A stretch of DNA of 64,000 nucleotides from Escherichia coli (lineage in GTDB: Bacteria > Pseudomonadota > Gammaproteobacteria > Enterobacterales > Enterobacteriaceae), in assembly GCF_965641715.1 (NCBI RefSeq), contig NZ_OZ282453.1, one strand, 5' to 3'. The notes below the pieces were generated by a model, which was not told where the DNA came from, made no database searches, and saw only the letters and a list, made by a program, of their open reading frames with translations. How positions within the stretch are numbered: position 1 is the first letter of the stretch; every line of letters begins with the position of its first letter. Below, piece after piece: positions 16,495 through 17,868 of the stretch. A program made the position numbers and the translations under genes.

Positions 16495-17868
16495 ATGTTA
16501 GTTAGTAAAAGCAACGAACTTAACACTAGCGCATTTTTTGCTAGCAGGAATTATAATGGAAACAATTCTTCCAACCCCATGGAGCTACTAGCTCATAGCA
16601 TTATAAAATTAATTTGTAAGGAAGCTGCCTCAGCGACGTATTGCGGTGCTCTTGAAACTTTACAAAAAATGATGTCTGAATGTATATATCAAGAAGGCAA
16701 CGCATTTGTCATTATGGGAGCTGGAGAACAATTAAAACGTATTAAATATGATGTTGATGAAAATAACTTAAAGGTATTCAACGTACACTTTGATAATAAT
16801 GAAGTGTTAGTTACTGATGGTGAGCCTGACGTAGTATGTTTAAGCAAGCAGGTCTGGGAAAATCTTCTCATTAAACTAAAGCTGGAGAACAAAGAAAATA
16901 CGGCTTCTGAAGTTCATGAATCAGCGAATAAAGGTGAGGTTGAGCAATTAGTTGAATGCTCTAAGAGAAATGAACAGACCCTTTTCGATAATATAAGAAA
17001 AAGTGATTTTCATGTTGGTTCACTTAAGCCAGGTAGTATGAATAGTGTTATTTTAGAAATGCCACCAAATGTCTGTATGGAACCACGTAATTCATATGAA
17101 AACAAAATAGATGAGGTTTCATCTTTGTCAGAGCCAAAGGAACACACCATAGATATTCAAGAAAAAACAGATGCGTTTGTGAAGAAGTTCAAGGGGATAT
17201 TATTTGATCAAAATGGAAGGTCTTCAGAGTTTCTACTTAATTTTTATGAATGTTGCTATGTGTTTTTACCAAGAGCGCAGCCTCAGGATAAAATCGAAAG
17301 CTATAATTCAGCACTGCAAGCTTTTTCCATCTTTTGTTCATCTACGTTGACACATAATAATATAGGCTTTGATTTCAAATTATTTCCAGAAGTCAAGCTG
17401 TCTGGAGAACATCTTGAAACGGTATTCAAATACAAAAATGGCGATGATGTCCGGGAGATAGCCAAAATTAACATTACTCTCCAAAAAGAAGAGGGTGGCT
17501 TATATAATCTACGTGGATTGGATTTTAAGGGATGTTTCTTTTCTGGACAGAACTTCAGTAACTATGATATTCAATATGTGAACTGGGGAACGTCATTGTT
17601 TGATGTTGATACTCCGTGTGTTTTTAATACGCCTGCTAACCATGAGAGTTATGAAAAATCATTAAAACCTGTAAGCGAAAACGGTTTAAATGGAGTCTTA
17701 TCTGATCGTAATAAAAAAATAAAAATGATCACGGGTGTGGCGCCATTCGATGATATTTTATTTATGGATGATGACTTTGATGATAACTCCCCTGAGGATG
17801 ATCCCGTTGAGAATAGTCCTGTTGTGAATAGTCCCCTTGTATCAAGTTCTAAAAGCAGTTTTCAATGA
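16495..17868 (+). CDS. ypjC: YpjC-like hypothetical protein (457 aa) with short pentapeptide-repeat stretch and acidic Ser/Pro-rich C-terminus
   Basis: Long ORF with GAGG RBS; AT-rich; segment RGLDF-KGCFF-SGQNF-SNYDI fits the pentapeptide-repeat pattern; C-terminal DNSPEDDPVENSPVVNSPLVSS. Confidence 0.7.
   Translation: MLVSKSNELNTSAFFASRNYNGNNSSNPMELLAHSIIKLICKEAASATYCGALETLQKMMSECIYQEGNAFVIMGAGEQLKRIKYDVDENNLKVFNVHFDNNEVLVTDGEPDVVCLSKQVWENLLIKLKLENKENTASEVHESANKGEVEQLVECSKRNEQTLFDNIRKSDFHVGSLKPGSMNSVILEMPPNVCMEPRNSYENKIDEVSSLSEPKEHTIDIQEKTDAFVKKFKGILFDQNGRSSEFLLNFYECCYVFLPRAQPQDKIESYNSALQAFSIFCSSTLTHNNIGFDFKLFPEVKLSGEHLETVFKYKNGDDVREIAKINITLQKEEGGLYNLRGLDFKGCFFSGQNFSNYDIQYVNWGTSLFDVDTPCVFNTPANHESYEKSLKPVSENGLNGVLSDRNKKIKMITGVAPFDDILFMDDDFDDNSPEDDPVENSPVVNSPLVSSSKSSFQ

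Follow-up and report, generated by a model that had tools for sequence, protein, structure and literature searches.

The gene at positions 16495 to 17868 (plus strand) of the 64,000-nucleotide (nt) stretch of Escherichia coli DNA analyzed here, referred to below as the window, is an intact allele of ypjC, now named ypjCB. Taken as a whole, the evidence is probably best explained by a dispensable binding protein that is found only in E. coli, was acquired horizontally and is silenced by H-NS and Hha. All positions given below are those of the window, features lie on its plus strand unless stated otherwise, and YpjCB residues are numbered on the window's product of 457 amino acids (aa).

As an earlier note on this DNA had described it, ypjCB is uninterrupted: the list of open reading frames (ORFs) gives a single ATG-initiated frame, whose predicted product has a mass of 51.6 kDa and a pI of 4.8. 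About 3-5 % of point mutations in this frame would create a stop codon (about 4-5 % as judged from its composition), and an ORF of 457 codons is therefore far beyond chance. The NCBIfam model NF050179 ('YpjCB family protein') matches it with 938.9 bits against a cut-off of 650, aligning residues 1-449 with model positions 1-465, while Pfam DUF5507 (residues 1-160, 268 bits) and DUF5508 (residues 195-457, 555 bits) both match within one polypeptide. These matches bear out the gene name that had been assigned from the letters alone, and no housekeeping protein emerged as a homolog from the profile search. Public databases contain the identical 457-aa protein as 'YpjCB family protein [Escherichia coli]', on 31 contigs; NCBI's YpjCB family model already covers the sequence, its intact form and its family, as well as the division of the gene into ypjC and ypjB in K-12. 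A literature search returned no functional study of the intact YpjCB protein.

In K-12, the same gene lies in the same place (ileY - ypjCB - pinH remnant - ypjA) with 91.8 % DNA identity to the window. In contrast to the window, which is open across codon 161 (nt 16975-16977), K-12 stops there. The copy in strain BW25113 is a RefSeq pseudogene with an internal stop, and its translation contains one stop only, at codon 161 (KRNE-stop-NLF, versus KRNEQTLF in the window), in agreement with the earlier note, which gave ypjC as disrupted in K-12. The K-12 'ypjC' (b2650) and 'ypjB' (b2649) are thus two halves of ypjCB, split by a Gln161-to-stop change. The K-12 products have been recorded accordingly, YpjC as an 18 kDa protein (PMC3646849) and YpjB as a protein of 263 aa (PMC1899176) that starts at Met195 (nt 17077-17079). 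The Pfam models have the corresponding lengths, 160 positions for DUF5507 and 263 for DUF5508; since DUF5507 ends, and DUF5508 begins, at the K-12 stop (161) and the next methionine (195), the two entries represent fragments of one protein rather than structural domains, and their edges should not be taken as structural boundaries. K-12 is for the same gene the wrong strain to work with, and strains carrying intact alleles are needed. The window allele also reads through codon 450, where many other alleles stop, and is a mosaic of segments found in other strains.

Of 5426 complete E. coli genomes searched by megablast, 3075 carry the gene, in every case on the chromosome, and 43 % lack it. Most of these copies are 88-95 % identical to the window, only two reaching 99 % or more. 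Beyond the species, a phmmer search over 1.84 billion cluster representatives returned one full-length cluster (79 % identity), fragments, and a single protein with PA14 domains (P0164, considered below). Among 100,044 species genomes (one per species), only two tiny contigs carry ypjCB: one from a Planococcaceae metagenome-assembled genome (L008; 2.8 kb, 95 % identical to the window) and one from Arthrobacter agilis (L009; 291 bp, with a coverage of 0.59 in its name). Both have the appearance of E. coli contamination. With the exception of one entry under the RefSeq label 'MULTISPECIES [Enterobacteriaceae]', every named database member comes from E. coli. No copy was found by tblastn in 50,697 phage records, and the sole PHROGs match, phrog_30093, is the YpjCB family itself, without assigned function. 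Four plasmid records matched, three being chromosomes of 4.8-4.9 Mb filed as plasmids and the fourth a 26 % fragment, leaving no true-plasmid copy. On these searches ypjCB is an E. coli-restricted orphan with no relative detectable outside the species.

Ratios of nonsynonymous to synonymous substitution rates (dN/dS), calculated by the Nei-Gojobori method for five ypjCB alleles, range from 0.52 to 0.86 over the whole gene; by segment, residues 1-160 and 161-228 have values near 1 or higher, compared with 0.24-0.75 for the core at 229-380. Between the window and K-12, the value for ypjCB (0.68) compares with 0.05 for glaH, 0.13 for the ygaQ-like gene and 0.28 for ypjA. As dS is similar across these four genes, the extra divergence of ypjCB consists of amino-acid change. 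The gene is also frequently broken: of the 18 loci sampled, 8 have an intact gene and the other 10 a pseudogene. At least four independent lesions underlie the latter, namely Q161stop, which K-12 shares with five further strains; the loss of 1 bp; a stop in codon 235 of one long allele; and a truncation by IS3.

Such figures raise the alternative that ypjCB is a relic with no present function, whose frame is intact here only through too little time having passed, in a gene that is leaving the species. Consistent with this reading are the dN/dS values (up to 1 or above in the N-terminal segment and the linker), the pseudogenes at more than half of the sampled loci, the large fraction of genomes that have no ypjCB, the orphan status of the gene, and the state of its neighbors, as the ygaQ-like gene and ypjA are often pseudogenes too. 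We nevertheless regard it as unlikely. Alleles that differ at 65-162 sites retain a frame of 449-484 codons at 35 % G+C, where 3-8 nonsense changes would be expected per pair; the window and the intact allele L006, for example, differ at 162 sites with 0 nonsense changes and about 5-8 expected. The absence of nonsense changes between divergent intact alleles indicates that the reading frame is under selection. All indels are likewise in frame, comprising a 105-nt segment and 15-nt repeat units. The former is a 35-aa insert (PVTKNSQQVKGHYGDKLKEMQMFLNQMSNALQQAP) carried by the long alleles L005, L006, L016 and L017 (484-492 aa) at a site between 17121 and 17122, after residue 209. Uniform decay would also not produce the uneven conservation of the protein (mean entropy over 109 distinct alleles of 0.05 in residues 335-375, versus 0.44-0.48 at the termini), and dN/dS in the core falls as low as 0.24. 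The alleles themselves are mosaics of one another. These comparisons of its alleles mark ypjCB as a genuine coding gene, under weak constraint and discarded by many lineages; it offers a clean example of a species-restricted, often-lost gene with selection on its frame, and a test case for young E. coli orphans.

The conservation profile, together with structure prediction by AlphaFold2 (AF2), divides YpjCB into several segments. Residues 1-30 (16495..16584) form a hypervariable Ser/Asn-rich N-terminus (6 Ser, 7 Asn, 2 acidic residues; mean entropy 0.48) with predicted local distance difference test (pLDDT) scores of 25-35. A conserved N-terminal region follows (residues 31-128, 16585..16878; 57 of 98 columns invariant among the 109 alleles), for which an alpha/beta arrangement of two helices, five strands and one helix is predicted at low confidence (pLDDT 44-57). 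Residues 129-228 (16879..17178) constitute a variable acidic linker, probably disordered (pLDDT 21-30), with a mean entropy of 0.41 in its first part (129-160); the K-12 stop site, Met195 and the site of the 35-aa indel all fall within this linker. The conserved C-terminal core spans residues 229-375 (17179..17619), with entropies of 0.05-0.13 (0.09 for residues 295-334 and 0.05 for 335-375). It is predicted to contain three helices and a three-stranded antiparallel sheet (295-328), succeeded by a coil with beta bridges every 5-6 residues. The full-length AF2 model, built on a 15-sequence alignment of at least 79 % identity, is unusable (pLDDT 40.5). A separate model of residues 214-399 has a pLDDT of 64.9 and a predicted template modeling score of 0.65; apart from a loop of low confidence at 287-292, most of the stretch 243-363 scores 70-87, and disorder is predicted past about residue 367.

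YpjCB has no signal peptide and no transmembrane segment, the highest Kyte-Doolittle hydropathy over 19 residues being 0.95. No enzymatic match was obtained in Pfam or the PDB, and PADLOC-DB returned 0 defense families at E<=1. SAP30 (E=1.3) and Qnr (E=7.7) were the only PDB proteins retrieved by sequence and profile searches, and both matches are non-significant. A catalytic Cys/His arrangement in the core was rejected on three grounds: His306 varies among alleles, the Cys-Cys pair is placed in mid-helix, and no papain-like fold was matched.

The most conserved part of YpjCB is a stretch of pentapeptide-like units within the core. Four of these, RGLDF KGCFF SGQNF SNYDI (residues 340-359, nt 17512-17571), had been noticed at the outset; in the A(D/N)(L/F)xx register, they extend to seven, YNLRG LDFKG CFFSG QNFSN YDIQY VNWGT SLFDV (residues 337-371, 17503..17607). 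In these seven units, D or N occupies position i-1 in five, and L, F, I or W occupies position i in all. When the protein sequence was shuffled 20,000 times, 3 of the shuffles attained this periodic [D/N][hydrophobic] pattern; the test was picked after the pattern had been seen.

A second conserved element lies toward the C-terminus. The acidic, Ser/Pro-rich composition claimed for the tail DNSPEDDPVENSPVVNSPLVSS (residues 430-451, nt 17782-17847) holds for residues 417-457 as a whole, which contain 11 D/E, 1 K/R, 8 Ser and 5 Pro and have a pI of 4.05. Within this region, however, it is the acidic/aromatic motif PFDDILFMDDDFDDN (residues 417-431, 17743..17787) that is conserved, with 8 of its 15 columns invariant over the 109 alleles, a mean entropy of 0.10 (versus 0.44 for residues 432-449), and no change in any of the 15 alleles of alignment A1. 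The conserved tail element, as judged from these alignments, is PFDDILFMDDDFDD, which lies ahead of the Ser/Pro repeat, and not the repeat itself. This element may resemble the acidic/aromatic interaction tips of other proteins, such as the C-terminus of the single-stranded DNA-binding protein SSB and W/F-acidic motifs. The repeat is a 15-bp tandem array of 2.6 copies (17802..17840; Tandem Repeats Finder score 57) that encodes PVENS/PVVNS/PLVSS and varies between alleles in both sequence and copy number, allele P0115 having an extra unit. Codon 450 (17842..17844) reads TCA (Ser) in the window, whereas the O157:H7 allele and many more have TAA (stop) there (CTTGTATCAAGTTCT vs CTTGTATAAAGTTCT); this polymorphism accounts for the existence of 457-aa and 449-aa forms. 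Because the Ser/Pro part of the tail is among the least conserved segments and ends at codon 450 in many alleles, it is dispensable and unlikely to be a functional feature. Conservation therefore directs attention to two parts of YpjCB, the acidic/aromatic motif (417-431) and the core (229-375), most of all its residues 335-375.

The chromosomal setting of ypjCB points to foreign origin. The AT-rich character of the DNA that had been remarked upon earlier was confirmed, with a G+C content of 0.34-0.35 across 16500-17999, versus 0.54-0.60 in 8000-12499; the low-G+C stretch spans about 12500 to 18000, and the gene itself has a G+C content of 0.354 (0.30 at third codon positions, GC3). A tRNA gene with a CAT anticodon (ileY, tRNA-Ile2; 15668..15743) was identified by ARAGORN and Rfam 751 bp 5' of ypjCB, and is labeled 'tRNA-Ile' in RefSeq. 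It serves as an island integration site: in ECNB21-M121 (L002 1-5204), it is the location of an insertion with a frameshifted integrase and retron Ec78 (reverse transcriptase, PtuA, PtuB), with homology to the window setting in again at position 15697, within the tRNA. On the 3' side of ypjCB lies the remnant of a pinH-like site-specific recombinase gene (18205..18372), mapped from the RefSeq K-12 and ECNB21-M121 loci ('recombinase family protein, incomplete'), at which the window is 98.8-100 % identical to K-12. The order ileY / ypjCB / pinH remnant / ypjA is the same in K-12, O157 and other loci. Nine of the 23 Ile codons in ypjCB (19.7 per 1000 codons) are AUA, a rare codon whose cognate tRNA is the adjoining ileY. 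From the low G+C content, the ileY site with its recombinase remnant, and the use of AUA, we infer that ypjCB was probably acquired horizontally.

Signals for expression in the window itself are modest. A Shine-Dalgarno-like GAGGA (16483..16487), read directly from the sequence, lies 7 nt 5' of the ATG, and a pattern scan found a sigma-70 promoter-like site, TTGTCT-16-TATAGT (16411..16438), which is a consensus match only; such sites are no more numerous around ypjCB than in shuffled sequence. Rfam, terminator and promoter scans of the surroundings yielded only the tRNA, the transfer-messenger RNA (tmRNA) and consensus sites at chance level. For the K-12 locus, an RpoD promoter and an H-NS mark have been reported within the ileY-ypjC spacer (PMC3946193), as have binding of the region by Hha and a 9-fold rise of the ypjC transcript (PMC2408971). 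Deletion of ypjC in K-12 led to more colonization of a commensal biofilm by pathogens, and its constitutive expression was without effect (PMC3646849). With the H-NS/Hha-silenced genes of AT-rich islands at tRNA loci, ypjCB shares low G+C content, tRNA adjacency, a recombinase remnant, patchy distribution and frequent decay, as well as an H-NS mark and Hha binding, the last two reported for the K-12 locus. Xenogeneic silencing describes a genomic setting, however, not a protein family, and is silent on what YpjCB does.

We propose that YpjCB is a soluble, acidic, non-enzymatic modular protein, in which a small N-terminal alpha/beta domain would be joined through a long, variable, disordered linker to the conserved C-terminal core and a disordered tail. 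The core would combine three helices and a three-stranded sheet with about 1.5 turns of pentapeptide-like coil. Folded modules and a short linear motif, in conjunction with the lack of a catalytic signature, suggest action by binding a partner, most likely through the conserved core and the acidic/aromatic motif PFDDILFMDDDFDD. H-NS/Hha would probably hold expression low, as they commonly do for foreign DNA rich in AT, such that YpjCB would act only under particular conditions and be dispensable in most lineages; the sole reported phenotype concerns biofilm or competition.

Several points weigh against this explanation. A binding or adaptor role has been inferred from architecture alone, and an enzymatic fold may have gone unrecognized, given the low confidence of the full-length AF2 model (pLDDT 40.5) and a shallow alignment of sequences at least 79 % identical. 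The K-12 phenotypes relate to a 160-aa truncated product or to polar effects, and no phenotype followed from constitutive expression (PMC3646849). A gene without present function could likewise show high dN/dS and frequent loss, and the argument from missing nonsense changes is conditioned on the choice of intact alleles.

The earlier note had likened YpjCB to secreted or effector-like proteins, a description that gained no positive support: YpjCB shows no homology or fold similarity to effectors and has no signal peptide, and no phage or true-plasmid copies were detected. In its most specific form, this proposal would make YpjCB a cryptic effector exported without a Sec signal, for example through a type III system such as that of the locus of enterocyte effacement (LEE) or E. 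coli type III secretion system 2 (ETT2), and acting on a host or competitor in the manner of PipB2, presumably by means of its small pentapeptide coil and acidic/aromatic motif. PipB2 is a pentapeptide effector to which YpjCB may be likened. We consider this proposal improbable, although a number of features are compatible with it. The N-terminus is Ser/Asn-rich and nearly free of acidic residues, has no hydrophobic core, and keeps its composition between alleles while its sequence varies; such a composition is, however, to be expected of any gene with 35 % G+C. The AT-rich, tRNA-adjacent island, the fast evolution and mosaic alleles, the disordered, modular architecture with its short conserved motif, and the presence of a pentapeptide-like stretch would all suit an effector, as would the intact allele kept by LEE-bearing O157:H7. 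K-12 also carries other decayed genes of effector families, such as yedN, a pseudogene of the IpaH/YopM family (PMC6928379). Opposed to these features are the lack of sequence or fold similarity to known effectors; a stop in a large human-derived isolate; the labels of the sampled strains with intact alleles, which do not name LEE pathotypes, intact and broken alleles showing no obvious association with LEE status (record labels only, from a small sample); the absence of a chaperone or secretion gene adjoining ypjCB; the absence of phage-borne copies, unlike most non-LEE effectors; and the absence of support in the searchable literature.

A related and still more speculative idea, to which we attach little probability, is that YpjCB may be a young, cryptic secretion substrate, specific to E. 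coli, that acts outside the producing cell or on a competitor or host, its invariant coil (337-371) and PFDDILFMDDDFDD binding a foreign target. If this were true, the fast evolution, mosaic alleles and repeated loss of ypjCB would reflect an arms race rather than decay, and the protein would be linked to the colonization-resistance phenotype of the K-12 ypjC deletion.

The pentapeptide-like stretch also bears on a further proposal, that YpjCB is a true pentapeptide-repeat protein (a right-handed quadrilateral beta-helix) that mimics DNA like Qnr or MfpA, with help from the acidic tail. Residues 337-371 share the x[D/N][L/F]xx register of Qnr, MfpA and PF00805 proteins over seven units and can be aligned to Qnr, which, in a search of the PDB with the family profile, was the sole solved structure to match and did so in the correct register. 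Sub-threshold matches to PF00805 and PF13576 cover NLRGLDFKGCFFSGQNFSN, the five-residue periodicity continues across all seven units, and the AF2 model places beta bridges every 5-6 residues with pLDDT values of 72-86. The Qnr match is not significant (E=7.7), however, and PF00805 gives no match to the full-length protein at E<=1, an excised 52-aa piece scoring 15.5 bits and the 224-aa C-terminal part 12.5 against a gathering threshold of 20.2. In addition, the array falls short of the 8 units of the Pfam model: its at most seven consecutive units, 35 residues in all, would make under two coils rather than a long helix, whereas the known structures contain many coils and DNA-mimicking pentapeptide proteins generally have 8 or more. 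No fold match was obtained, and the remainder of YpjCB is unrelated to such proteins. Of the pentapeptide repeat first reported, then, the periodic pattern stands, while membership of YpjCB in the pentapeptide family is, at the level of sequence, not established; that the protein is a DNA mimic appears very improbable.

Equally hard to credit is the view that residues 297-375 are a degenerate PA14-like sugar-binding module derived from the junction of two tandem PA14 domains, since the protein that suggests it, P0164, owes its score to the sum of four near-identical repeats with 0 single stretches passing, a pairwise E-value of 3e-6 is calculated to correspond to hundreds of chance matches at database scale, the PA14 model has no match on YpjCB (C-terminal half, E<=10; full protein, E<=1), and about 80 residues of beta structure contrast with a PA14 barrel of 140. 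P0164 is the only non-family match among the 1.84 billion proteins (E=5.3e-4) and holds four PA14 domains (282 bits); Pfam DUF5508 gives 36 bits on it, and YpjCB residues 297-356 align to each of its PA14 junctions with 37 % identity, including FKGCFFSGQNFSN vs FTGCYYSDQNFTN. This weak match pairs the residues of the pentapeptide-like stretch with the first strand of PA14 domains. What PA14 (PF07691) proteins have in common with YpjCB is local, a beta hairpin followed by F-x-G-C-[FY]-[FY]-S-x-Q-N-F-[ST]-N, with no significant single match, PA14 profile match or fold match for YpjCB. P0164 was accordingly rejected as a homolog and its resemblance treated as chance, the score being four summed weak matches and the PA14 profile failing to match YpjCB.

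Downstream of the recombinase remnant, the window carries an intact gene for the autotransporter YpjA/EhaD (ypjA, 18780-23378), which is frameshifted or truncated in several other strains. It is directly followed by the tmRNA gene ssrA on the minus strand (23539-23901); in contrast to K-12, where a CP4-57-type prophage lies between ypjA and ssrA, there is none at this site in the window. Upstream of ileY, on the minus strand, an intact ygaQ-like ORF of 750 aa (12856-15108) belongs by weak Pfam matches to the alpha-amylase family (Alpha-amylase and Alpha-amylase_C, 22 and 27 bits); the ygaQ-like copies of K-12 and O157:H7 are annotated as pseudogenes with internal stops.

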